Sequence record: MK327932.1
Reading direction: 5' to 3' (one strand)
DNA: 64,000 nucleotides
Source: Escherichia phage vB_EcoM_G2248
The first letter of the stretch is position 1, and each line of letters starts with the position of its first letter. A model generated the notes under the pieces. It was not told where the DNA came from, did no database searches, and saw nothing but the letters and a program-made list of their open reading frames with translations. A program made the translations under genes and the position numbers. Of the stretch, positions 2,727 through 61,760 are shown in pieces.

Positions 2727-4589
2727 TTACATGTGCTTAACGCGGTTTACCATCTCGGAGTGTTTCCCGTGGTTGAATGGACGCAGATCAACAGATCCAA
2801 GATATCCACTAACGCGACGGATAACATTCATCTTTTCCAGATTGTCATTGCCGCAATCAGGACAAACAAAACCAGACTCGGTCGCTCTCATTTCCTTAGT
2901 AGATCCGCATACATGACATACATCAGAAGGAGTATTAACACCGAAGTAGTGCAATTTATCCATTGCATAGTCTACTACAGTTTCAAGACCTTTCAGGTTG
3001 TTTTTCATGTCTGGGAACTCAACATAAGAGATCATGCCACCGGACGCCAGCCAGTGATAATCTTTCTCAAAGTCGATTTTCTCAAATGGAGTGACTTTCC
3101 GGTCTACGTCAAGGTGGAATGAGTTGGTGTACCAGTCTTTATCGGTAGCACCCTTAACAATACCAAATTGCTCTCGGTCCAGTCGATTAAATCGATAGCA
3201 AAGGCTCTCGGCTGGCGTACCGTAAAGACTAAACCCAAGTCCGGTTTCATCCTTCCATTTTTCAGTATAATGACGCAAGATCTTAAGAATATGTTTACCG
3301 TATCGCTGCGCATCTTCCGAATCAAACGGATGAACACCAAACAGGACGCTCAATACCTCATGTAAACCAATATATCCAAGAGAGATACTAGCGCGACCAT
3401 CTTTCAGAACTTCCAAAATTTCATCGTTTTGATGAATACGGAAAAATGCACCTTCTGTATACAGTACAGGAGCAACATTGGCTTTAGCCCCTTTTAAAGC
3501 GTCTACGCGACTCATGAGCGCATCAAAGCAAATAGGCATACGATTAGCTAGCTCTTGTTCGAATAGCTCAATTCTGCGCATTACAGACGCTTTACCAGCA
3601 CGACGCGCGGCAATAAGGGCAATACGCGGAAGATTTAGAGTCACAACACCTAAGTTATTACGTCCGTCTAATACTTCTTCGCCTTTCTCATTATGCCACA
3701 CACCCAGGAAGCTACGACAACCCATCGGGCTAACCGGAACACTAGATCCAGTGATACTACGGTTATTCTTCGCAGAGATATAATCAGGGTAAAGACGCTT
3801 ACTAGAACATTCCAATGCAAGTTGCTTAATGTCGTAGTTCGGATCTTCCGGTTTAAGGTTTAATCCTTCTTCTAAGAACATCACCAGCTTAGGAAACACC
3901 GGAGTTATACCGTCTTTACCTAAACCTTTAGTTCGAACTTTCAGGATCGCTTTCTGAATCAGTTTTTCTTCCCAGCTAGTACCCATACCAAAGGTTAAAG
4001 TCACAAAAGGCGTTTGACCGTTGGTGGAGAACAAAGTGTTGATTTCATATTCCAACGCTTGATACCCGTCTAGCGTTTCTTTTTCTGTCTTCTCTTGTGC
4101 ATAGAGAGTATCAGCTTTGATTCCGTAGGTTTCGGCATCAGCAAGGTGTTTATGATATGTTTTCTCAACGTATGGCGCTAAAACCTGATCGATGTTTGCA
4201 ATTGTGGTCCCGCCATATTGATGACTTGCCACCTGTGCGATAATTTGAGCGGTTACAGCACAAGCAACGCCGATCGATTTCGGACTTTCGATTTGTGCGC
4301 TACCCAATTTAAAACCATTCTCTAACATGTCTTTGAGATTAACAAGACAGCAGTTAGTAAACGGCATAGCGGGTGCATAATCCATATCATGATAATGAAT
4401 ATCACCATCTACATGCGCTTTATAGATGTGCTCAGGTAACACGGTTTTAGCAATCTGTTTAGACACAGCACCAGCAATCAGATCTCGACGTGTCGGGAAT
4501 GTTCGCGCGTCTTTGTTCGCGTTCTCTTTGCTTACTTCGTTTTCTTTACCCGTTGCGATCTCTGTAATGTCTTTGATTAGTTTTTCCAT
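2727..4589 (-). CDS. nrdD: anaerobic ribonucleoside-triphosphate reductase (glycyl radical enzyme)
   Basis: 620 aa; C-terminal zinc site CPDCG and glycyl radical motif RVSGYLG; single uninterrupted ORF. Confidence 0.9.
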   Translation of the reverse strand: MEKLIKDITEIATGKENEVSKENANKDARTFPTRRDLIAGAVSKQIAKTVLPEHIYKAHVDGDIHYHDMDYAPAMPFTNCCLVNLKDMLENGFKLGSAQIESPKSIGVACAVTAQIIAQVASHQYGGTTIANIDQVLAPYVEKTYHKHLADAETYGIKADTLYAQEKTEKETLDGYQALEYEINTLFSTNGQTPFVTLTFGMGTSWEEKLIQKAILKVRTKGLGKDGITPVFPKLVMFLEEGLNLKPEDPNYDIKQLALECSSKRLYPDYISAKNNRSITGSSVPVSPMGCRSFLGVWHNEKGEEVLDGRNNLGVVTLNLPRIALIAARRAGKASVMRRIELFEQELANRMPICFDALMSRVDALKGAKANVAPVLYTEGAFFRIHQNDEILEVLKDGRASISLGYIGLHEVLSVLFGVHPFDSEDAQRYGKHILKILRHYTEKWKDETGLGFSLYGTPAESLCYRFNRLDREQFGIVKGATDKDWYTNSFHLDVDRKVTPFEKIDFEKDYHWLASGGMISYVEFPDMKNNLKGLETVVDYAMDKLHYFGVNTPSDVCHVCGSTKEMRATESGFVCPDCGNDNLEKMNVIRRVSGYLGSVDLRPFNHGKHSEMVNRVKHM

Positions 4590-4602
4590 TGTATCACCTA
4601 TG

Positions 4603-4625
4603 AAAAAGCGGGATTTTCTCCCGCT
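4603..4625 (-). terminator. hairpin/terminator between the upstream gene and nrdD
   Basis: AGCGGGAGAAAATCCCGCT on the transcribed strand followed by a T-run. Confidence 0.5.
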
Positions 4626-4634
4626 CGTTGATAG

Positions 4635-5129
4635 TTATTTTACCAGTTCTGCTAATTCTTTTTCTTTAGCTTCTAGTTCAGCTTTAAGCTGTTTAATCTC
4701 TTGTCGCTTCTTATTAGCGGCTTCTTGCTTACTATTTCGGATAACCTGATCTAGATACAACTCCCAATCCTGAATATTTTTGATAATGTAACCGTCAACA
4801 TTAATTGGTCGGAGATTCAGTACAGCTTCCAGTTTAGTTGCAAAAACTTTAATTGCTGGTGTGAAGTATTCATATTCGTTATCTTCAAACCAATAACCTA
4901 GACTTGCATTCTCAATACGAAGATGAAGTTTAAGATCAAGGTCTTTATCATCGGTATATAGGTCTTTTACACACCCAATAGAATTAACAACAACTTTAAA
5001 ACGAATTTTATCTACACCACCAAACACATCTTCAAGAATATCAGCAATTGAGCTATTAGCGCAAGATTGGTCGCTGAATGCGTCAAGGTTTTCTTTAGTT
5101 ACAGTATACCAAACATCTTGTACCCACAT
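4635..5129 (-). CDS. hypothetical protein with C-terminal coiled coil
   Basis: ATG at 5129 preceded by the conserved RBS module GAGGATTATATTATG. Confidence 0.55.
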   Translation of the reverse strand: MWVQDVWYTVTKENLDAFSDQSCANSSIADILEDVFGGVDKIRFKVVVNSIGCVKDLYTDDKDLDLKLHLRIENASLGYWFEDNEYEYFTPAIKVFATKLEAVLNLRPINVDGYIIKNIQDWELYLDQVIRNSKQEAANKKRQEIKQLKAELEAKEKELAELVK

Positions 5130-12959: not shown

Positions 12960-13250
12960 TCAAATACTGGTTTTGCGAAGATGGTCATTACATGCTTTTA
13001 ATGCATCAGTCGAGGTGTCATAGCGAGTATTATCATAGCACCAATAACCATCTGTCAACTGATAAATTAATCCATCCTTTTTAGCGTCGATGAAAGACAA
13101 TTCTTTGAAAGTTTCTACTTTCTTTGCTGATACTCCACGGTCACGGCGTTTATAGAGTTTAGCTAAAACGCGTTCAGCTTGTTCCTCTTTATCGCCAGAC
13201 AGATCCCAGATGACGTTTCTGATATGCTTGATTAATTGTTCAGTGGTCAT
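12960..13250 (-). CDS. hypothetical protein
   Basis: ATG 13250 behind RBS AAGGAGAATCAAAT and a PeSL-like promoter. Confidence 0.5.
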   Translation of the reverse strand: MTTEQLIKHIRNVIWDLSGDKEEQAERVLAKLYKRRDRGVSAKKVETFKELSFIDAKKDGLIYQLTDGYWCYDNTRYDTSTDALKACNDHLRKTSI

Positions 13251-13280: not shown

Positions 13281-13308
13281 ATTATACGGGGATTTCTCCC
13301 CGTGTCAA
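13281..13308 (-). promoter_or_regulatory. PeSL-like early promoter (TTGACA, spacer hairpin CGGGGAGAAATCCCCG, TATAAT)
   Basis: Perfect hexamers 16 nt apart; spacer is the recurrent GGGGAGAAATCCCC hairpin. Confidence 0.6.
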
Positions 13309-13311
13309 CAA

Positions 13312-13533
13312 TTAAATGATCTCTGCTTCACCGTTAAGGAAGAAAGACCATGTTTTGTTAGGATAACGAAGCGCCCATGATTCAGCAGTTTTAACACCAG
13401 CTTCGAACAATTGACGGCTGGTTACTTTAGCCATACCATCTTCGATGGCAACGTTTTCAATAATCATCGGGTACTTAGCGCCACGCATGAAACCGAAGCC
13501 AGTGGAAGATTTGATAATTTTAACAGTTGCCAT
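13312..13533 (-). CDS. small hypothetical protein
   Basis: Start placed at ATG 13533 behind RBS AGGAGAATCAAAA. Confidence 0.45.
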   Translation of the reverse strand: MATVKIIKSSTGFGFMRGAKYPMIIENVAIEDGMAKVTSRQLFEAGVKTAESWALRYPNKTWSFFLNGEAEII

Positions 13534-13550
13534 TTTTGATTCTCCTAGAA

Positions 13551-13602
13551 AGTGTCGTGTTTCGATGGGTGTATTATGCAATAACACCGGATCGCTGTCA
13601 AC
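13551..13602 (-). promoter_or_regulatory. PeSL-like early promoter with conserved leader ATCGAAACACGACACTTTCTAGGAGA
   Basis: TTGACA at 13602..13597, -10 CATAAT; near-identical copies elsewhere. Confidence 0.55.
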
Positions 13603-32919: not shown

Positions 32920-33946
32920 AATATGTATCAGCTAATTTAATTATGTTATCAAGTTCCGTTATTGGTAAAGTTTCTGTGTATCCATCTTTCAACATAGATT
33001 TATCAACAACGCCACATTGATAAGTTCTCTTTATTTCCTTTTCAAGTTCCCACGGAATCCAGCCATCAACACTTTGTTTGACGTAAACAAGTTTATGAAC
33101 AAACTTAGATTTCTGCATATGTTGTTTCATTCTGGTTTCCGGTAATTCATTGGTTACACCAAACTTTATAAATTTATCATCTAACGTCTGGATATAAAAA
33201 TATCCTATCTCAGATGGACGATAGCCAGAAGAACTACATTTCGGACACCCTTTAGCATTTCTGCTGAACGTACAATATCTTACGGAAAATTCGGCGTCAT
33301 GTTTTGTACATTTAAGTTTTATCCATGAATTTGCAGTACCTATCCATTCACCATCGACACCTATATATTCATACCCTAACTTTTTACATTTATCTTCTAT
33401 TCTAGATAGTGCATCTTCTACGGGAACGACATATTCCGTCTTAAATTGTTCAGCCGCACATTTCTTACAACCACATGTACCATGATTTTTAAAATCAAAG
33501 AACTTTGTATTCTTCCAAATATGGTCATGTTTCTTGCATCTAAGAATAATCTTAGTAATTTGTGATTTCCAGCCACCAACAAATCCCAAAAATTCATAAT
33601 CAAGATCTTTACATTTTTCTTCAATGAATTTGGTTGCTTCCTCTTCTGTCATAACTCCCCTACATTGAGGACAACCAACAATAACCTTTTTAGCATAGAA
33701 ACTATTACTGGAAACATCATAGACAGATCCATGCTTATTGCATTGGATAACAGATCTAGTCAATTTTCCTTTCCATTCTCCAGAAAATCCTAAGAATGTA
33801 TGGTCGACAAGTTTACACCTTTCAATAACTTTATCCGCAAATTCTCTAGGAGATTTTGTTACTTTGTTTACTCTGTATTCTATTTCTTCCGGTTGACGAA
33901 GATAATAAACGTGGGGATTGCTCCCCACGGAATTAATATTAAGCAT
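32918..33946 (-). CDS. putative GIY-YIG-like nuclease with three N-terminal zinc-ribbon repeats (candidate homing endonuclease)
   Basis: Three ~45-aa repeats each ending in a CxxC-type motif (CPQCRG, CGCKKC, CPKCSS); C-terminal GYFYIQTL...FIKFGVT...R...H; ATG 33946 with RBS AAGGAAGG. Confidence 0.4.
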   Translation of the reverse strand: MLNINSVGSNPHVYYLRQPEEIEYRVNKVTKSPREFADKVIERCKLVDHTFLGFSGEWKGKLTRSVIQCNKHGSVYDVSSNSFYAKKVIVGCPQCRGVMTEEEATKFIEEKCKDLDYEFLGFVGGWKSQITKIILRCKKHDHIWKNTKFFDFKNHGTCGCKKCAAEQFKTEYVVPVEDALSRIEDKCKKLGYEYIGVDGEWIGTANSWIKLKCTKHDAEFSVRYCTFSRNAKGCPKCSSSGYRPSEIGYFYIQTLDDKFIKFGVTNELPETRMKQHMQKSKFVHKLVYVKQSVDGWIPWELEKEIKRTYQCGVVDKSMLKDGYTETLPITELDNIIKLADTY

Positions 33947-35245: not shown

Positions 35246-35260
35246 TTTAGCACCCTTTAT

Positions 35261-35268
35261 TATAAATA
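35261..35268 (+). promoter_or_regulatory. late promoter TATAAATA for gene 53
   Basis: Exact TATAAATA about 33 nt upstream of ATG 35301. Confidence 0.6.
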
Positions 35269-35276
35269 CATAATAC

Positions 35277-35284
35277 TATTTATC
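35277..35284 (-). promoter_or_regulatory. probable late promoter GATAAATA for genes 4 and 2
   Basis: One mismatch from TATAAATA, about 32 nt upstream of ATG 35245. Confidence 0.35.
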
Positions 35285-35300
35285 AATTGAGGGTGCTAAA

Positions 35301-35855
35301 ATGCTCTTTTCTTTCTTCCCTGCCATTGAATACAACGGCAAGATGATTACTGACATTGTGCGCAATTACCGCGCATATTTCAACGCAATAATTTCTGATT
35401 ATAACATACAAACATATTACATTCAAGGTAGTCCACGACCGGAACAAGTTGCATATGAAGTATACGGAAACCAACAACTTTATTGGATCTTGCTGATGCT
35501 TAATGACGTATACGATCCGTTCCATGACTGGATCACCGATCAAGAGACAGCATATGAATCAGCCGAACAACGATATGCAAACGTAGGAGGAAATCAAGTA
35601 TTATACCACGTTGATATTGACGGAAACAAGTATTGGAATCTTACCGAATATCCGAAAGGATCAAGCAATTGGTATGATAAAGGGGATATTCATCACCGTT
35701 ATTTGCAGTTTCAGGGTGCATTATCGGCAGTAGACACACTGGAAGATGCGATCCTCCGTAATGAGGAACGACGCAAGATCAAGATCATAGATCCTACACA
35801 AATTAAACAATTTATTAACGCATTCATTCGAGAAATGGAAAAGGCTGATGTGTAA
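35301..35855 (+). CDS. 53: baseplate wedge protein gp53
   Basis: 184 aa, immediately upstream of gene 5 as in T4. Confidence 0.7.
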   Translation: MLFSFFPAIEYNGKMITDIVRNYRAYFNAIISDYNIQTYYIQGSPRPEQVAYEVYGNQQLYWILLMLNDVYDPFHDWITDQETAYESAEQRYANVGGNQVLYHVDIDGNKYWNLTEYPKGSSNWYDKGDIHHRYLQFQGALSAVDTLEDAILRNEERRKIKIIDPTQIKQFINAFIREMEKADV

Positions 35856-50820: not shown

Positions 50821-52589
50821 TGATCGAACAATTAAACATTCGAAAGATCCCTAACGTCGATGGTGTCCCCGGAGAGGGACAACATTCTATTAGCTGGATT
50901 AAAAATGGTGAATGTCTAAGCGCAGCAACCACAGAAACAGGACACGAGGGGACGCTTAACCGCGCCCCTTATGCGATTCAAGAAAATATTGTTCGTCTGG
51001 ATGAAAATTCTAAGACAACGGTAACAAAAGTTAACGAAGTTGTTACAGCAGTTAATGATATTAAAACTACTTTAGGCGCGGTTGCTGATGGTAGTATTAT
51101 TGATATTGTCAATCAAACTATTGCAAAGGTTGAGTCTGTAGAAGAAAATTTAGGAGAAACTTCAAGGACATTACAAACCACAGTAGATGAACTGGCGGAG
51201 ACAGGAAAGAAAATTGGTGTTCGTCCGGCAGCAGATCCGAGTACACGAACAATATATGATGATATTTCTTTCATCAAACAAGAATTGGGTGCTTTCCCTA
51301 ACTTCAACATCAACGGTTATCCAGATCCAGGTAGTTCCGGTTCCGGTATCAAATATCGAGTTATCCAGAATACGGAAGCATTAAACAACCACGGTCAGCG
51401 AATCCGCCAACTAGAAAACGACTGGCAAGATTCTGACGTTGGAGAGCTAACAAAACAAGTTAACAAAATGCGAAGCGAGCTAGGCGACCCATCACTAGCA
51501 ACACAGGACAATGTTTATCTTCGTCTTCGTACCAACACTCGCAATATCGCTAGTATATCAAACGAAGTTCAGGAAGTAAAGAAAGCGATTCTATTTGAAT
51601 CAATTCCTGATATCGGTACTAAAGTAACCAAGCTACAATCTGATTATACACAGCTTAATGATGAAGTCAACGGCGTTGACGCTGGTATCCGTCCTCGTTT
51701 AACTCGTCTGGAAAATAAGATTGGCAATCCTCAATCCGCTGGAAGTATTGATTATCGATTGACTAATCAAGAACGGGAATTTGTAGATCTTAAATCTATT
51801 GTCGGTGTCAGTGGTGCTGATGGCCTACGTGGTGAGGTTGCACGAATCACTAACACCGTCGGCACGGATAACGAGCGTCACACAATCGCTGGTCGACTGA
51901 AAATCGTCGAAAACACGCAAGGGCGTTTAGAAGCAAACGTGCAGGATATCGAGCAAATGATCGGCAATCGAGATTCCGGTCTAATCGCTGGGGTTATTAA
52001 GCTGTCAAGCGACATGTACGGCAATCCAGAAGGAAGCACGCAGTTTGAACAAGATGGGATCGTGAAAACTGTTAAGGCATTGAGCACGTCAAATGAAAGC
52101 AAGATAACAGACGTTCCTGATGATGGGTTCCACTATCTCCGCAAACACGGAGAATGGGTCCAAGTTGCGTGGGCTGCTGGTGCATTTAAAAACACCACTC
52201 AGATTGATCTTACGCTAGACGAACAAGACCAATACAAAGGAATCCCGCTTACTGACATGACCGCAGAAGTTCCAGTGCGTGGATTGGTTAAGAGCGAATC
52301 TCTTGTTACGGTTAACGACAAAGGCTTATTCCGTTGTGTTTTCCGTTGTTCTGTACACGCGGCACATAACGCTACTTTCGTAGTCGGTATTGCTAAAAAT
52401 GGTCAGATTGTACATGAGGTACGAAATGGTCATTATGGAACTGATGAATTAATTAGCTATTCTACCAGTGCTTTCCTAAATATTGAAAAGGGCGACCGGA
52501 TCGATATTCGTATTAAGGGTGTATCCGTAGAAGCATTAGCGCAACCGCTACAAATTAAAGAGTTCCTCTTTGGAATTTCTCCGGTATAA
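50820..52589 (+). CDS. wac: fibritin (whisker protein) with an extra C-terminal domain
   Basis: Coiled-coil heptads; foldon-like GFHYLRKHGEWVQV followed by about 140 additional residues. Confidence 0.8.
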   Translation: MIEQLNIRKIPNVDGVPGEGQHSISWIKNGECLSAATTETGHEGTLNRAPYAIQENIVRLDENSKTTVTKVNEVVTAVNDIKTTLGAVADGSIIDIVNQTIAKVESVEENLGETSRTLQTTVDELAETGKKIGVRPAADPSTRTIYDDISFIKQELGAFPNFNINGYPDPGSSGSGIKYRVIQNTEALNNHGQRIRQLENDWQDSDVGELTKQVNKMRSELGDPSLATQDNVYLRLRTNTRNIASISNEVQEVKKAILFESIPDIGTKVTKLQSDYTQLNDEVNGVDAGIRPRLTRLENKIGNPQSAGSIDYRLTNQEREFVDLKSIVGVSGADGLRGEVARITNTVGTDNERHTIAGRLKIVENTQGRLEANVQDIEQMIGNRDSGLIAGVIKLSSDMYGNPEGSTQFEQDGIVKTVKALSTSNESKITDVPDDGFHYLRKHGEWVQVAWAAGAFKNTTQIDLTLDEQDQYKGIPLTDMTAEVPVRGLVKSESLVTVNDKGLFRCVFRCSVHAAHNATFVVGIAKNGQIVHEVRNGHYGTDELISYSTSAFLNIEKGDRIDIRIKGVSVEALAQPLQIKEFLFGISPV

Positions 52590-52597
52590 GAAATTAA

Positions 52598-52621
52598 AGG
52601 GGCGTTAAGCCCCTTTTTCGT
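52598..52621 (+). terminator. rho-independent terminator after wac
   Basis: Hairpin AGGGGCGTTAAGCCCCT followed by TTTTCGTTT. Confidence 0.65.
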
Positions 52622-53568: not shown

Positions 53569-53574
53569 TTTATT

Positions 53575-53590
53575 GGGGGAGTATTCCCCC
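53575..53590 (+). promoter_or_regulatory. intergenic RNA hairpin GGGGGAGTATTCCCCC between genes 13 and 14
   Basis: Perfect palindrome with no T-run; probable mRNA structural element. Confidence 0.4.
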
Positions 53591-53604
53591 ATTTGGAGTA
53601 ACAT

Positions 53605-55218: not shown

Positions 55219-57539
<2,321 letters not shown>

Positions 57540-57570
57540 CGATAATGCATAAAAAGATGAGGAAATTCTA

Positions 57571-59568
57571 ATGACTCTATTATCACCGGGTTTCGAAACG
57601 AAAGAAACTACTCTCTCCACTACCATTGTGCAATCTGCGACTGGTCGCGCGGCGCTGGTAGGTAAATTCCAATGGGGTCCAGCTTTCCAGATTGTTCAAG
57701 TAACTAATGAAGTTGAATTAGTTAATAAATTTGGTCAGCCGGATAATAACACCGCAGACTATTTCATGAGCGGGGCTAACTTCCTCCAGTACGGTAATGA
57801 CCTGCGTGTTGTTCGTGTCCTGAATAAAGCAAAAGCGAAAAACGCAACTGCACTGGCGGGTAACGTAGAATTTAATATTACCAACGAAGGTTCTAACTAC
57901 AAAGTAGGCGATACTATTAAAGTAAAATATAAAAACACCGATGTTGAGACTGGCGGTAAAGTTACTAAAATCAGCACAGAAGGTAAAATTAAGGGTATTT
58001 TTATCCCAACCAGGAAAATCATTTCTCTGGCTAAGTCTATTGGTGTTTACCCTAATCTGGATGGATTTACCGTAGAAATCACTTCCAGCACTGGTAACTC
58101 AACTGCGGCGATCACCATTTCCAAAATTGTTACCGATTCCGGTCTTCTCTTAACGGATCTGGAAACTTCCCGCGCCAATATCACCAATCAAGAATTTTTG
58201 ACTAAGCTCAAAAAGTATGATATGCCAGCGGTAAGTGCAATCTATGCGGGTGAGATCGGGGACTCTCTGGAAGTTGAAATTCTGGCACGTAGTGCGTTTA
58301 AGAACACCGCACCGGAACTGACAATGTATCCTTACGGCGGTACTCGCACCGCAGCACGCAACCTGATTCCATATGCACCGCAGAATGATAACCAGTATGC
58401 GTTTATTGTTCGTCGAGATGGTGTTGTGGTAGAATCCTATGTACTGTCTACTCTGAAAGGTGATAAAGACGTTTACGGAAATTCTATCTATATGGACGAC
58501 TTCTTCGCTCGTGGTGCTAGTCAGTACATCTATGCAACCGCTCAGGGTTGGGTAGATGGTTTCAGTGGCATTATCTCTCTTGCTGGTGGTGTTTCTGCGA
58601 ACGAAGCCAGCACGAGCGATCGCGAAAATGACCCGTTCATTGGTGCGATGATGCAAGGTTGGGATCTGTTCGCTGAACGCGAATCTATTCACGTAAACCT
58701 GCTGATTGCTGGTGCATGTGCTGGTGAGAGTGACGCATTCTCTACTGTACAGAAACATGCTGTTTCCATCGGTGATGAGCGTCAGGATTGCTTAGTGATG
58801 GTTTCTCCGCCGCGTAGCACCGTTGTTAATATTCCGGTGACTACCGCAATTGATAACCTGATTGCATGGCGCGAAGGAAAGAGCAATTACTCAGACAACA
58901 ACATGAACATTAATACCACTTACGCGGTTATTGATGGTAACTACAAATATCAGTATGACAAATACAACGACGTAAACCGTTGGGTTCCGTTGGCTGCTGA
59001 TATTGCTGGCTTGTGTGCTCGTACTGATGTTGTATCCCAGCCGTGGATGAGTCCGGCAGGTTATAACCGTGGTCAGATCATGAACGTGGTTAAGTTGGCT
59101 ATTGAGCCTCGCAAGGCGCACCGTGATCGTCTGTATCAGGCCGCAATTAACCCGGTAATCGGTGCTGGTGGTGAAGGGTTTATCCTGATGGGTGATAAAA
59201 CCGCTACGACTGTCCCTAGCCCGTTTGACCGCATTAACGTTCGTCGTCTGTTTAACATGCTGAAAAAGAATATCGGCGATTCAAGCAAATACAAACTGTT
59301 TGAAAACAACGATAACTTTACTCGCGCTTCCTTCCGTATGGAGGTTTCGCAATATCTCAGCACGATTCGCTCTCTGGGTGGCATTTATGACTTCCGAGTA
59401 CAGTGCGACACCACAAACAACACGCCGGATGTAATTGATCGTAACGAATTTGTTGCTAGTATGTTCATCAAACCAGCAAAATCGATCAACTATATCATGC
59501 TCAATTTCACTGCTGTTGCAACTGGTGCTGATTTTGACGAAATTATCGGTCCAGCTAACCAGGCATAA
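57571..59568 (+). CDS. 18: tail sheath protein gp18
   Basis: 665 aa, synteny and size. Confidence 0.9.
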   Translation: MTLLSPGFETKETTLSTTIVQSATGRAALVGKFQWGPAFQIVQVTNEVELVNKFGQPDNNTADYFMSGANFLQYGNDLRVVRVLNKAKAKNATALAGNVEFNITNEGSNYKVGDTIKVKYKNTDVETGGKVTKISTEGKIKGIFIPTRKIISLAKSIGVYPNLDGFTVEITSSTGNSTAAITISKIVTDSGLLLTDLETSRANITNQEFLTKLKKYDMPAVSAIYAGEIGDSLEVEILARSAFKNTAPELTMYPYGGTRTAARNLIPYAPQNDNQYAFIVRRDGVVVESYVLSTLKGDKDVYGNSIYMDDFFARGASQYIYATAQGWVDGFSGIISLAGGVSANEASTSDRENDPFIGAMMQGWDLFAERESIHVNLLIAGACAGESDAFSTVQKHAVSIGDERQDCLVMVSPPRSTVVNIPVTTAIDNLIAWREGKSNYSDNNMNINTTYAVIDGNYKYQYDKYNDVNRWVPLAADIAGLCARTDVVSQPWMSPAGYNRGQIMNVVKLAIEPRKAHRDRLYQAAINPVIGAGGEGFILMGDKTATTVPSPFDRINVRRLFNMLKKNIGDSSKYKLFENNDNFTRASFRMEVSQYLSTIRSLGGIYDFRVQCDTTNNTPDVIDRNEFVASMFIKPAKSINYIMLNFTAVATGADFDEIIGPANQA

Positions 59569-59602
59569 TCAGTAAATTAGCATAGATTAAAGGTTAAAAT
59601 CA

Positions 59603-59622
59603 AGCGGGGAGAAATCCCCGCT
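59603..59622 (+). promoter_or_regulatory. conserved RNA hairpin AGCGGGGAGAAATCCCCGCT upstream of gene 19
   Basis: Perfect 8-bp G-rich stem; same motif recurs at 60149, 13286 and 4607 in transcript-sense orientation. Confidence 0.5.
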
Positions 59623-59641
59623 CTATTAAGGAATATCAATT

Positions 59642-60136
59642 ATGGCACTCGATTTGAATGATATTACACGCGGTTTCGAGTCTGGCGATTTTGCTCGTCC
59701 TAACCTGTTTGAAGTTGAGATCCCGTATCTGGGGCAAAACTTTAAGCTGATGTGTAAAGCGGCAACTGTCCCGGCCGCAACCGTAGAAAAAATCGCTATC
59801 GGTTATCAAAACCGTAAAATTAACATCGCTGGCGACCGTGTATATGACGACTGGACCATCACTGTATTCAACGATGACGCACACAAGATCCGTGACGCTA
59901 TCGTTGCATGGAGCGATCAGACACATGGCACTGGATCGGCGATCACTGGTGCAACTCCTGCACAGTATAAGAAACAAGCTATTGTTCGTCAACTTAACCG
60001 TAACACCGAATCAACTAGCGAAAAAACATTGTACGGTATTTTCCCGACTAATGTCGGTGAAGTAACCCTCGATTGGGAACAAAACAACGAAGTTGAAACG
60101 TTTGAAGTTACTTTTGCTATCGATTGGGTAGAATAA
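59642..60136 (+). CDS. 19: tail tube protein gp19
   Basis: 164 aa, synteny and size. Confidence 0.85.
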   Translation: MALDLNDITRGFESGDFARPNLFEVEIPYLGQNFKLMCKAATVPAATVEKIAIGYQNRKINIAGDRVYDDWTITVFNDDAHKIRDAIVAWSDQTHGTGSAITGATPAQYKKQAIVRQLNRNTESTSEKTLYGIFPTNVGEVTLDWEQNNEVETFEVTFAIDWVE

Positions 60137-60148
60137 ATATATTATCAT

Positions 60149-60167
60149 GCGGGGAGAAGTTCCCCGC
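60149..60167 (+). promoter_or_regulatory. conserved RNA hairpin GCGGGGAGAAGTTCCCCGC downstream of gene 19
   Basis: Second copy of the G-rich hairpin, flanking the tail tube gene. Confidence 0.5.
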
Positions 60168-60194
60168 TTAATTTCTCCCAATTCGAGGTGAATA

Positions 60195-61760
60195 ATGTTT
60201 AGTAGATTAAAAATGCTTGCGCGTTGGGCTGATTTTGACAACGACAAATACGAAGAACAAATTAAAGATAAAGCAGAGTCTATAGCCGCACCTAAAAACA
60301 ATGATGGTGCTACGGAAGTAGAAATTAATGATAATTCACCTGCTAGCGCGTGGAACTCTCTTACCCAGCAATTTTACAGCACCGACCAGAAAATCAGTAC
60401 AACTAAGCAATTAGTTAACACATATCGCGGTTTGATGAATAACCATGAAGTCGAAAACGCTGTACAGAATATCGTTAACGATGCGATTGTATTTGAAGAC
60501 GGTCATGACGTTGTTTCATTAAATCTTGAGGCGACTGGCTTTAGTGAATCTGTAAAAGAGCGCATTCATGAAGAATTTAAAGATCTTTTAAACACTATCC
60601 AGTTTGATAGGCGCGGTCAGGATATGTTCCGTCGCTGGTATGTCGATTCGCGTATTTTCTTCCATAAGATCATCGGTAAAAACCCAAAAGATGGTATCGT
60701 AGAATTACGCCAGCTTGATCCACGTAATCTTGAATATGTTCGCGAGATCATTACAGAAGACACACCGGAAGGTAAAATTTATAAAGCAACGAAAGAATAT
60801 TTCATTTACACTGTAGTCAATAGCTCTTATTGCGCAGGTGGTCAAGTATTCTCTCCTAATAGTCGCGTTAAAATCCCGCGTAGTGCCATTACATACGCTC
60901 ATAGCGGCTTGATGGATTGCGATGATAAATATATCATTGGTTATTTGCATCGGGCTGTTAAGCCAGCAAACCAACTTAAACTGTTGGAAGACGCAATGGT
61001 CGTTTATCGTATCACGCGTGCACCTGAACGCCGAGTGTTCTTTATTGATACCGGAAACATGAACAACCGCAAGGCTGCACAGCACATGAACTCAGTGGCA
61101 CAGTCTTTTAAAAACCGCGTTGTTTATGATGCATCGACTGGTAAACTTAAAAACCAGCAAGCAAACCTATCAATGACAGAGGACTACTGGTTACAGCGTC
61201 GAGATGGTAAAGCAATCACCGATGTTACTACTTTACCCGGTGCATCTGGTATGAGTGATATCGATGATATTCGCTACTTTAACCGTAAATTGTATGAAGC
61301 GTTGCGTGTACCATTGTCCCGTAGTAATCTCTCTGATGCTAATATGGTTATTGGTGGTGATGGTTCAGAAATTACGCGCGATGAGTTGGAATTTTCGAAA
61401 TTCATTAGAACTCTGCAAACACAGTTTTCGGAAGTATTGCGCGATCCACTTAAATATAATCTGATCCTTAAAAATGTAATTACGGAAGACGATTGGGATC
61501 GTGAAATAAATAATATCAAGGTGGTTTTCCATCGGGACTCTTATTATACAGAAGTTAAAGACGCGGAAATTTTAGAACGTCGAATCGGTCTAATCGAACG
61601 TATCGCCCCTTACATTGGTAAGTATTTCTCTAACCAGACAGTGATGCGTGACATTCTGAAATATACCGATGACCAGATGGACACCGAGAAGAAACAGATC
61701 GAAGAAGAAGCGAACGATCCGCGCTTTAAACAAACTCCCGATGAAATAGAGGATTTTTAA
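60195..61760 (+). CDS. 20: portal vertex protein gp20
   Basis: 521 aa, synteny and size. Confidence 0.9.
   Translation: MFSRLKMLARWADFDNDKYEEQIKDKAESIAAPKNNDGATEVEINDNSPASAWNSLTQQFYSTDQKISTTKQLVNTYRGLMNNHEVENAVQNIVNDAIVFEDGHDVVSLNLEATGFSESVKERIHEEFKDLLNTIQFDRRGQDMFRRWYVDSRIFFHKIIGKNPKDGIVELRQLDPRNLEYVREIITEDTPEGKIYKATKEYFIYTVVNSSYCAGGQVFSPNSRVKIPRSAITYAHSGLMDCDDKYIIGYLHRAVKPANQLKLLEDAMVVYRITRAPERRVFFIDTGNMNNRKAAQHMNSVAQSFKNRVVYDASTGKLKNQQANLSMTEDYWLQRRDGKAITDVTTLPGASGMSDIDDIRYFNRKLYEALRVPLSRSNLSDANMVIGGDGSEITRDELEFSKFIRTLQTQFSEVLRDPLKYNLILKNVITEDDWDREINNIKVVFHRDSYYTEVKDAEILERRIGLIERIAPYIGKYFSNQTVMRDILKYTDDQMDTEKKQIEEEANDPRFKQTPDEIEDF

Follow-up and report, generated by a model that had tools for sequence, protein, structure and literature searches.

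Two near-identical G+C-rich hairpins bracket gene 19, the tail tube gene, in the Krischvirus genome analyzed here. In our reading, to which we give a probability of roughly 0.6, they most likely set the mRNA 3' ends and the mRNA stability of genes 18 and 19. The hairpins are there, at a defined position and with a conserved structure, and they are selected as sense-strand RNA. According to our comparative analysis, the pair is the Krischvirus form of hairpins that lie at the same two positions in most of the T4-type genera sampled, and it belongs to a known kind, the stable intercistronic hairpins of T4-type phages. A sequence-only reading of the same DNA had already pointed to near-identical hairpins flanking gene 19, and its coordinates and sequences agree with ours; it had missed a further copy at 33910 as well as the same bracketing of gene 19 in T4 and in nearly all genera sampled.

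The gene 18–20 unit and the stem-loops of the window

The window, that is the whole 64-kb stretch of MK327932.1 that was analyzed, has a G+C content of 40% and a coding share of about 94%. The phage is a Krischvirus, a T4-type phage of the RB49/phi1 kind. Its gene 18–20 segment is 95–99% identical to that of 57 Krischvirus genomes (RB49, phi1, JSE and others), and no matching record for this segment lies above about 98%. Transcription runs leftward in the left 35 kb, which carries early genes, and rightward in the right 29 kb, which carries late virion genes. The gene 18–20 unit comprises the following features.

57532..57539, plus strand: consensus late promoter TATAAATA before gene 18 (exact motif search)
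57571..59568, plus strand: gene 18, tail sheath (annotation of the 95–99% identical Krischvirus records)
59603..59622, plus strand: hairpin 1, AGCGGGGA-GAAA-TCCCCGCT, after the gene 18 stop and before the gene 19 SD
59642..60136, plus strand: gene 19, tail tube, between hairpins 1 and 2 (annotation of relatives)
60132..60139, plus strand: AATAAATA, candidate late promoter with 1 mismatch to the consensus, overlapping the gene 19 stop codon
60149..60176, plus strand: hairpin 2, GCGGGGA-GAAGT-TCCCCGC (stem-loop 60149–60167) with T-rich tail TTAATTTCT, after gene 19
60195..61760, plus strand: gene 20, portal protein, 3' of hairpin 2 (annotation of relatives)

Exact copies of the consensus late promoter are found on the plus strand of the window at 35261, 46072, 57532 (before gene 18), 63101 (before gene 22) and 63954. 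On this strand no exact copy lies between 57532 and 63101, so that genes 18, 19, 20, 67, 68 and 21 have only the one at 57532. Since there is no consensus late promoter between gene 18 and gene 22, genes 19 and 20 rely on read-through. Both of these genes are essential. In the T4 virion, sheath (gp18) and tube (gp19) are present in about 138 copies each and the portal in 12.

Hairpin 1 starts 34 nt past the gene 18 stop and ends 19 nt short of the gene 19 ATG. Its stem of 8 bp is rich in G+C and is closed by a GNRA tetraloop (GAAA). The fold has a dG of -15.3 kcal/mol in the sense and -14.4 kcal/mol in the antisense reading, and it stands out from dinucleotide shuffles (z = -3.8, p = 0.002). 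Hairpin 2 starts 12 nt past the gene 19 stop, 9 nt after the end of AATAAATA, and has a stem of 7 bp (dG -12.9 kcal/mol; p = 0.044 against dinucleotide shuffles); its loop, the pentaloop GAAGU, is outside the tetraloop class. The two have ATCA-N-GCGGGGAGAA..TCCCCGCT in common. A search of the window with the 18-mer and at most 3 mismatches gave 3 matches where 0.01 were expected, and it misses hairpin 2 only through a 1-nt insertion. An Rfam scan of positions 57400–60400 at E<=10 returned two chance-level matches only, none of them at the hairpins.

Terminator scoring, with a d-score of the d'Aubenton-Carafa type, bore out the proposal that these are not classical terminators: the values are -22.8 for hairpin 1 and -5.1 for hairpin 2, against +5 to +31 for the true terminators of the window. 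The related statement that the plus-strand copies have no T-run is correct for hairpin 1, which has no U-tract (tail CTATTAAGG, T-score 1.1), but not for hairpin 2, whose tail TTAATTTCT is an interrupted U-tract; the latter has a borderline d-score and was flagged in the terminator scan.

Three stem-loops of similar style on the minus strand bear on how the pair should be classified.

4602..4625, minus strand: intrinsic terminator, AGCGGGA-GAAAA-TCCCGCT then TTTTT (stem-loop 4607–4625), d = +4.7
13281..13308, minus strand: PeSL, TTGACA-16-TATAAT with perfect promoter boxes, spacer ACGGGGA-GAAA-TCCCCGT (13286–13303)
33902..33929, minus strand: intrinsic terminator, CGTGGGGA-GCAA-TCCCCACG then TTTATTAT (stem-loop 33910–33929), d = +19

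A PeSL, or promoter-early stem-loop, joins a strong early promoter to a G(n)-loop-C(n) stem-loop, placed in the interval that separates the -35 from the -10 box or overlapping either of them (PMC2839356; PMC4122927). The hairpin at 13286–13303 fills the 16-nt promoter spacer exactly, and the whole element lies between the stop of the ORF at 13312–13587 and the SD/ATG of the ORF at 12960–13250. The small ORFs on either side have no Pfam match, as is expected for the surroundings of a PeSL. The stem-loop at 4607–4625 is a looser relative of the motif, with GGG instead of GGGG, between the ORF at 4635–5129 and nrdD (2727–4589; Pfam NRDD, E = 1e-175). The one at 33910–33929 has a GNRA loop and compensatory changes in its stem. 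The 13286 copy is thus a member of the already known PeSL class, and those at 4607 and 33910 are ordinary intrinsic terminators.

These assignments bear on two points of the sequence-only reading. Reuse of the motif in early promoters is right for 13286, which sits in a promoter spacer, but the claim merges PeSLs with terminators (4607, 33910). The copy at 4607–4625 does lie before nrdD; as an instance of the same motif it fails, being a looser GGG variant within a canonical terminator that ends in TTTTT. The orientation with transcription was confirmed by the motif search, the purine-rich loop being on the transcribed strand in 5/5 intergenic copies; the stems are palindromic, so that orientation can be read from the loop alone.

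Throughout the window we found 40 perfect stems of at least 6 bp, 19 of them intergenic by crude gene calls; three further stems (1515, 7736 and 33910) are probably intergenic as well. The look-alike hairpins fall into three functional classes that share the one stem-loop style of this phage group. The first class lies within or overlaps sigma-70 promoters (1509, 5160, 10529, 11204, 13281 and 28090, all on the minus strand), and those at 13286, 1509, 11204 and 28090, whose stem-loop occupies the promoter spacer, are bona fide PeSLs. The second consists of canonical terminators with a U-tract (4607, 28420, 30393, 32892 and 33910; d-scores +5 to +31). The third, with a poor or absent U-tract, is made up of the late-region hairpins at 52596, 53574, 59603 and 60149 (d-scores -23 to -5).

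Conservation among T4-type phages

We compared the spacers between genes 18 and 19 and between genes 19 and 20 of the window with those of T4 and RB69 and of phages that represent 12 other genera: Pseudotevenvirus, a Klebsiella phage (Roth88), Winklervirus, Karamvirus, Jiaodavirus, Dhakavirus, Gaprivervirus, Roskildevirus, Biquartavirus, Schizotequatrovirus, Lazarusvirus and Ceceduovirus. Most of these belong to the Straboviridae, and two records have no lineage. A stable G+C-rich hairpin lies 3' of both the gene 18 and the gene 19 stop in 14/15 T4-type genera, starting 0–34 nt past the stop (3–17 nt in most), and a briefer look at VR5 and Acj61 also showed a strong hairpin 3' of gene 19. Tested against dinucleotide shuffles, the stretches of up to 60 nt past the stops gave the better fold at p<=0.05 in 23 of 30 regions, 18 of which reached p<=0.01. 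The Dhakavirus representative has no clear hairpin in either spacer, and no G+C-rich hairpin was found in L006 and L007, the two most distant of 7 IMG/VR gp19 loci; conservation is therefore not universal among gp19-bearing phages, a counterpoint to the generality of the pattern.

The stems of different genera have unrelated sequences. The T4 hairpin after gene 18 is GGCCUGU-UUCG-GCAGGCC. After gene 19, T4 has AUGGGGA-GAAA-UCCCCAU and RB69 has UGGGGA-GAAA-UCCCCA, both with the GGGGAGAAATCCCC / GGGGAGAAAUCCCC core of the window and with compensatory changes on both sides at the base of the stem. Asswx_1 and the Pseudotevenvirus phages have GGGGUA-G(A/C)AA-UACCCC. As stems differ while structure and position persist across genera, selection would act on structure and stability over specific sequence.

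Within Krischvirus the stem GCGGGGA/TCCCCGC is invariant at both sites in all genomes sampled, and the loops vary (GAAA, GAAAA, GAAGT and TTAT). In hairpin 1, GAAA is found in the window only, GAAAA in RB49, Makalu_001, SSG23 and ECD7, and GAAGT in JK32, pEJ01 and L002; in hairpin 2, most genomes have GAAGT and JK32 has TTAT. The GAAA of the window is thus a single-base variant of the pentaloop GAAAA typical of the genus. Because it is confined to the window and hairpin 2 has a pentaloop, an argument from tetraloops holds across the subfamily, not inside Krischvirus. The pattern within the genus fits selection on stem stability.

The same data weigh on the idea, raised by the sequence-only reading, that the hairpins are a specific site for a phage or host regulator that binds RNA or DNA. 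We consider this highly improbable and the least likely of the alternatives. The invariant Krischvirus stem and the return of the GGGGAGAAAUCCCC core in T4 and RB69 would suit such a site, but the combination of invariant stems with freely varying loops inside the genus argues against a protein that reads the loop, and at the same positions other genera have unrelated stems with UUCG loops. Stems differ entirely across genera, structure and position persist, and this comparison did not support the proposal. In addition, the CUUCGG hairpin is said to bind no proteins (PMC4371310 commentary). The stem contains a RegB motif, GGAG, but it is shielded by secondary structure, and late mRNAs are all RegB-resistant (PMC3014915); cleavage by RegB at this motif is for these reasons unlikely.

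To see on which strand the structure is read, loops and folding energies were counted on both strands, with one phage per genus and with statistics that ignore phylogeny. A GNRA or UUCG tetraloop is present on the sense strand in 18/28 hairpins by script, or 20/28 after manual addition of hairpin 1 of the window and the PG7 hairpin between genes 19 and 20, both of which the script had shortened. The antisense strand has 0/28 (binomial p about 1e-17 against 12/256). In 22 hairpins the sense fold has the lower dG, in 5 the two strands tie and in 1 the antisense fold is the more stable (sign test p = 6e-6); the cause is the G.U pairs, which form in the sense reading only. This bias in tetraloops and in stability indicates that selection acts on RNA, and we place it, on comparative grounds, at the level of the transcript.

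Such a bias would not be expected of an element that works as DNA only. We hold it quite improbable that the hairpins are recombination modules at the DNA level, in the manner of PeSLs, a role that would be compatible with one in RNA. On this account gene conversion, the insertion of mobile ORFs or the formation of mini-circles would have its junctions at the near-identical 19-nt direct repeats and their relatives. Several observations agree with it. The loop GAAGT is shared by the two sites of JK32, pEJ01 and L002, a hint that the copies have exchanged sequence. In phiS, an inserted 199-aa ORF with its own hairpin (GGGGGAG-GTCAA-CTCCCCC) separates the gene 18 stop from hairpin 1; homology to the window returns about 5 nt before hairpin 1. 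Extra ORFs are also found in the gene 18–20 spacers of CHI14, VR26 and Eco005, and shuffling mediated by PeSLs, with mini-circles, is documented for RB49/phi1 (PMC2839356). Yet the mini-circle-negative control of Arbiol et al. was gene 17, a conserved virion-module gene without PeSLs (PMC2839356), and the phage would not survive loss of the essential gene 19. The inserted phiS ORF has no Pfam match and looks HNH-like by eye only.

The position of late promoters tells which gene is served. In T4 (between genes 18 and 19), RB69, PG7, the Pseudotevenvirus phages, Roth88, 44RR2.8t and KVP40, the promoter starts at the last base of the hairpin, as in the junctions ...AGCCCCC/ATAAATA, ...AGCCCAT/ATAAATA and ...GGCCC/ATATAAATA, where the slash marks the boundary. 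Transcripts that the downstream gene makes from its own promoter therefore lack the hairpin. In a minority, the spacers between genes 19 and 20 of the Pseudotevenvirus phages, Roth88, VR26 and VR5, the promoter lies 5' of the hairpin. What stays constant across genera is how near the hairpin lies to the upstream stop codon, and not how far it is from the downstream start; this proximity assigns the element to the upstream cistron, at its 3' end.

A role at the opposite end, with the hairpins as 5'-end stabilizers or processing signals for the downstream genes, is very doubtful in the light of these distances. It would have RNase E cut in the AU-rich single-stranded sequence that precedes both hairpins, or the weak late promoter AATAAATA at 60132 start transcription; capped by the hairpin, gene 19 or gene 20 mRNA would then be shielded from decay that depends on the 5' end. 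The AU-rich stretches themselves, the 9 nt that separate AATAAATA from hairpin 2 and the minority arrangement with TATAAATA before the hairpin after gene 19 are in line with it, and in E. coli, structured 5' ends made by RNase E stabilize downstream operon segments (PMC5927463). Against this, in most genera the late promoter abuts the 3' side of the hairpin and leaves the downstream mRNA without it, and in ECW1, GAP161 and Roth88 the promoter is so near (TATAAATAcAGGGG) that the start would fall inside the 5' arm.

Hairpin and promoter could also be taken together. The hairpins after genes 18 and 19 would then be a late counterpart of PeSLs, a cassette of a stem-loop plus an optional late promoter that both acts in RNA and forms a recombination junction in the virion module; we regard this as tentative and unlikely. 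In its favor, the 19-nt repeats around gene 19 appear to swap sequence, mobile ORFs enter at the hairpins (phiS, CHI14, VR26 and Eco005), and in many genera stem and TATAAATA share one base, the last of the former and the first of the latter. That overlap suggests a coupled terminator-promoter unit that is movable or swappable, possibly via gene 19 mini-circles.

A probable role at the transcript ends of genes 18 and 19

Of the functions put forward by the sequence-only reading, an RNA stability or processing element is the one that the comparative data support best. We propose that the two hairpins act as punctuation, at the RNA level, of the late gene 18–19–20 transcript. Very stable stem-loops would close the cistrons of genes 18 and 19 at the 3' end and would block 3'-to-5' exonucleases after endonucleolytic cleavage or pausing, with hairpin 2 possibly serving in addition as a leaky intrinsic terminator. 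Sheath and tube (about 138 copies per virion) would then have more abundant mRNA segments than the portal (12 copies), and enough polymerase would pass to express genes 19, 20 and beyond. We infer both the effect at the 3' end, be it protection or partial termination, and the tuning of stoichiometry. In E. coli, protective RNA structures are known to alter the stoichiometry of operons (PMC5927463).

Genes 19 and 20 need read-through and hairpin 1 has no U-tract, which rules out efficient termination, especially at hairpin 1. Hairpin 2 could terminate partially, given its tail TTAATTTCT. A purely transcriptional role for both, as partial intrinsic terminators or attenuators for the T4-modified RNA polymerase and with no part in decay, is possible but rather unlikely; polymerase flow would drop stepwise along the gene 18–19–20 unit. 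Besides the tail of hairpin 2 and its terminator-like call in the scan, it can draw on the finding that a G(n)-loop-C(n) stem-loop of a PeSL, placed between promoter and lacZ, cut expression about as much as rrnB T1 (PMC2839356), and in one GenBank record hairpin 1 has a software-made 'terminator' label, which is on the wrong strand. What speaks against it is that the U-tract is missing at hairpin 1 and at most of its counterparts in other genera, that the d-scores are far under those of the real terminators of the window, and that gene 19, whose product is needed at about 138 copies, lies behind hairpin 1 without a consensus late promoter of its own.

Two counterpoints concern the dosage part of the mRNA 3'-end reading. 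Gp18 and gp19 are needed in equal numbers, and a step after gene 18 is not obviously required. T4 and many genera give each gene its own late promoter; the stoichiometry argument is for this reason specific to Krischvirus, though the hairpins are general.

An RNA switch was also considered, in which the 5' arm of hairpin 2 (GGGAGAAGUU) pairs with the downstream segment AAUUUCUCCC (-20.3 vs -20.5 kcal/mol). It was dropped, as JK32 alters both the loop and the downstream segment and the alternative pairing is not kept. Part of the same idea was a long-range, AU-rich stem that could mask the gene 20 AUG.

For annotation, the gain is that PeSL cassettes, true terminators and non-terminating intercistronic hairpins can be told apart in RB49-type genomes, and that the gene 19 pair belongs to a punctuation of the sheath, tube and portal genes that T4-type phages have conserved. 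If dosage tuning is true, two RNA elements of 20 nt would provide a compact and evolutionarily robust control of the stoichiometry of viral structural proteins, and they could supply insulator or stabilizer parts for phage engineering. The current understanding of T4 biology is unchanged.

Comparison with known systems

The gene 19 hairpins share several traits with the PeSLs of RB49/phi1: the phage group, the G(n)-loop-C(n) style, which is the house style of RB49-type stem-loops (PMC4122927), and an intergenic place directly after the upstream stop and 5' of the next SD and ATG. They differ in having no sigma-70 promoter. On the plus strand near the hairpins, the only candidate is TTGCTA-18-TATATT (9/12) at 60114, and matches this weak occur at the chance rate (32 found vs 32.4 expected). 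They also differ in their location, which is the conserved late virion module (genes 18, 19 and 20) and not a hyperplastic region. The stem-loop of a PeSL terminates upstream transcription (PMC2839356; PMC4122927), and the two PeSL papers (Arbiol et al. 2010, Comeau et al. 2014) describe early and middle promoter versions. By word searches, gene 19 or the tail tube is unmentioned in the 2010 paper and the word 'late' is absent from the 2014 paper; the words 'terminator', 'hairpin' and 'stem-loop' are absent from the T4 late-transcription review. Nolan 2006 lists conserved predicted terminators, and the gene 19 hairpins are not among them. The synteny of the hairpins across genera is thus unmentioned in the PeSL papers, in Nolan 2006 and in the review; an earlier mention for T4 is possible.

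Intrinsic terminators likewise have a G+C-rich stem-loop after the stop, as at 4607, 33910, 28420, 30393 and 32892. They differ from the pair in that hairpin 1 is without a U-tract, the U-tract of hairpin 2 is interrupted and both d-scores are negative.

T4 offers a close parallel in architecture: the stops of genes 18 and 19 are likewise each followed directly by a hairpin, with a G+C-rich stem of 6–9 bp and, on the mRNA strand, an extra-stable loop. The T4 gene 19 sequence was reportedly described by Arisaka in 1988. In T4, however, each hairpin is followed by late promoters TATAAATA of its own (two before gene 19, one before gene 20), whereas the Krischvirus spacers have none; the two T4 hairpins are unrelated to each other in sequence, whereas those of the window are near-copies; and Krischvirus loops are mostly pentaloops, unlike the tetraloops of T4. 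Extra-stable hairpins with UUCG tetraloops were first found in T4 mRNA (PMC4371310).

Protective stem-loops within operons, such as REP-like 3' barriers, provide the functional parallel. The E. coli examples lie mostly inside coding regions, whereas the phage hairpins are intergenic and would have the protective role proposed here. The placement is the same in both, at the 3' end of the more-needed cistron and where read-through is required (PMC5927463).

Late promoters beside the post-gene hairpins

The late promoter TATAAATA begins, in many genera, on the last base of the hairpin that follows the gene 18 or gene 19 stop, or one base off it (T4, L008:779-813; likewise the comparison phage sequences L010, L013, L014, L020, L021 and L022), so that the first promoter base is the final T or A of the stem. 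Stem-loop and late promoter here form one tight composite unit, of which we found no description in the literature examined on promoter-early stem-loops (PeSLs). In Acj61 and Kimel, the late promoter motif falls inside the post-gene-19 hairpin. The window carries a near-consensus motif, which ends 9 nt before hairpin 2:

60132-60139, plus strand: AATAAATA, one mismatch to the late promoter consensus, overlapping the gene 19 stop codon
60149-60167, plus strand: hairpin 2, between genes 19 and 20

The same layout is shared by 44RR2.8t and Cronus, where (A/T)ATAAATA contains the stop codon and is followed by a hairpin.

Alternative pairings were predicted within 60139-60197 (plus strand). GGGAGAAGUU (60152-60161) could pair with AAUUUCUCCC (60170-60179) at an energy nearly equal to that of hairpin 2, and the AU-rich stretch 60139-60148 could pair with 60186-60197, which would mask the AUG of gene 20 (P unpaired 0.21). 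The hairpin formed by 60152-60161 and 60170-60179 is probably fortuitous, because it is not kept in JK32. Terminator scores were borderline for hairpin 2 and for the following late-region hairpins:

52596-52616, plus strand: AAAGGGGC-GTTAA-GCCCCTTT, then TTCGTTT; intergenic, 3' of a 589-aa ORF ending at 52589
53574-53591, plus strand: TGGGGGA-GTAT-TCCCCCA; intergenic, between 310-aa and 246-aa ORFs, presumed to be genes 13 and 14

Hairpin 1 within Krischvirus

Hairpin 1 (59603-59622, plus strand, between genes 18 and 19) was compared with its counterparts in L026-L029, L001, L002 and L009. Its GAAA tetraloop is found in the window only, the other sampled Krischvirus genomes having GAAAA or GAAGT. 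No GenBank phage record exceeded about 98% identity to the window over the gene 18-20 segment, so the window derives from an unsampled variant. In Ec_Makalu_001 (MN894885.1; L026:142-162), hairpin 1 is entered in the GenBank annotation as a minus-strand "terminator", antisense to every adjacent gene. This is evidently an automated call, and its strand is arbitrary because the stem is symmetric.

Insertions in the gene 18-20 spacers

The gene 18|19 and gene 19|20 spacers are recurrent insertion points:

CHI14, L015:1562-2245: additional ORF of about 227 aa ("19.1"-like), gene 18|19 spacer
VR26, L025:1659-2342: the same type of ORF, gene 18|19 spacer
vB_EcoM_005, L017:1645-2328: the same type of ORF, gene 18|19 spacer
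vB_EcoM_005, L017:2891-3472: HNH endonuclease gene, gene 19|20 spacer

Virsaitis27 lacks the gene 18|19 insert of about 227 aa, though it is conspecific with CHI14.

In Escherichia phage phiS (PP449093.1; L030:551-1245), a 199-aa ORF is inserted in the gene 18|19 spacer, on the gene 18 side of hairpin 1. A Pfam search gave no match for it; Cys-rich and HNH-like motifs are visible in it by eye only. Downstream of the gene 18 stop lies an additional hairpin, GGGGGAG-GTCAA-CTCCCCC, and the sequence becomes homologous to the window again about 5 nt 5' of hairpin 1. The insert thus has a G(n)-loop-C(n) hairpin at each boundary, a PeSL-like arrangement.

An inverted repeat around the first rightward late promoter

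35247-35299, plus strand: 10-bp inverted repeat TTAGCACCCT ... AGGGTGCTAA, enclosing a late promoter TATAAATA at 35261-35268

Within the 3' arm lies the SD for the first gene read rightward, whose ATG is at 35301. The SD would be hidden in read-through transcripts and exposed in those from the late promoter. This is the classical T4 arrangement that the Uzan & Miller review describes for gene e.
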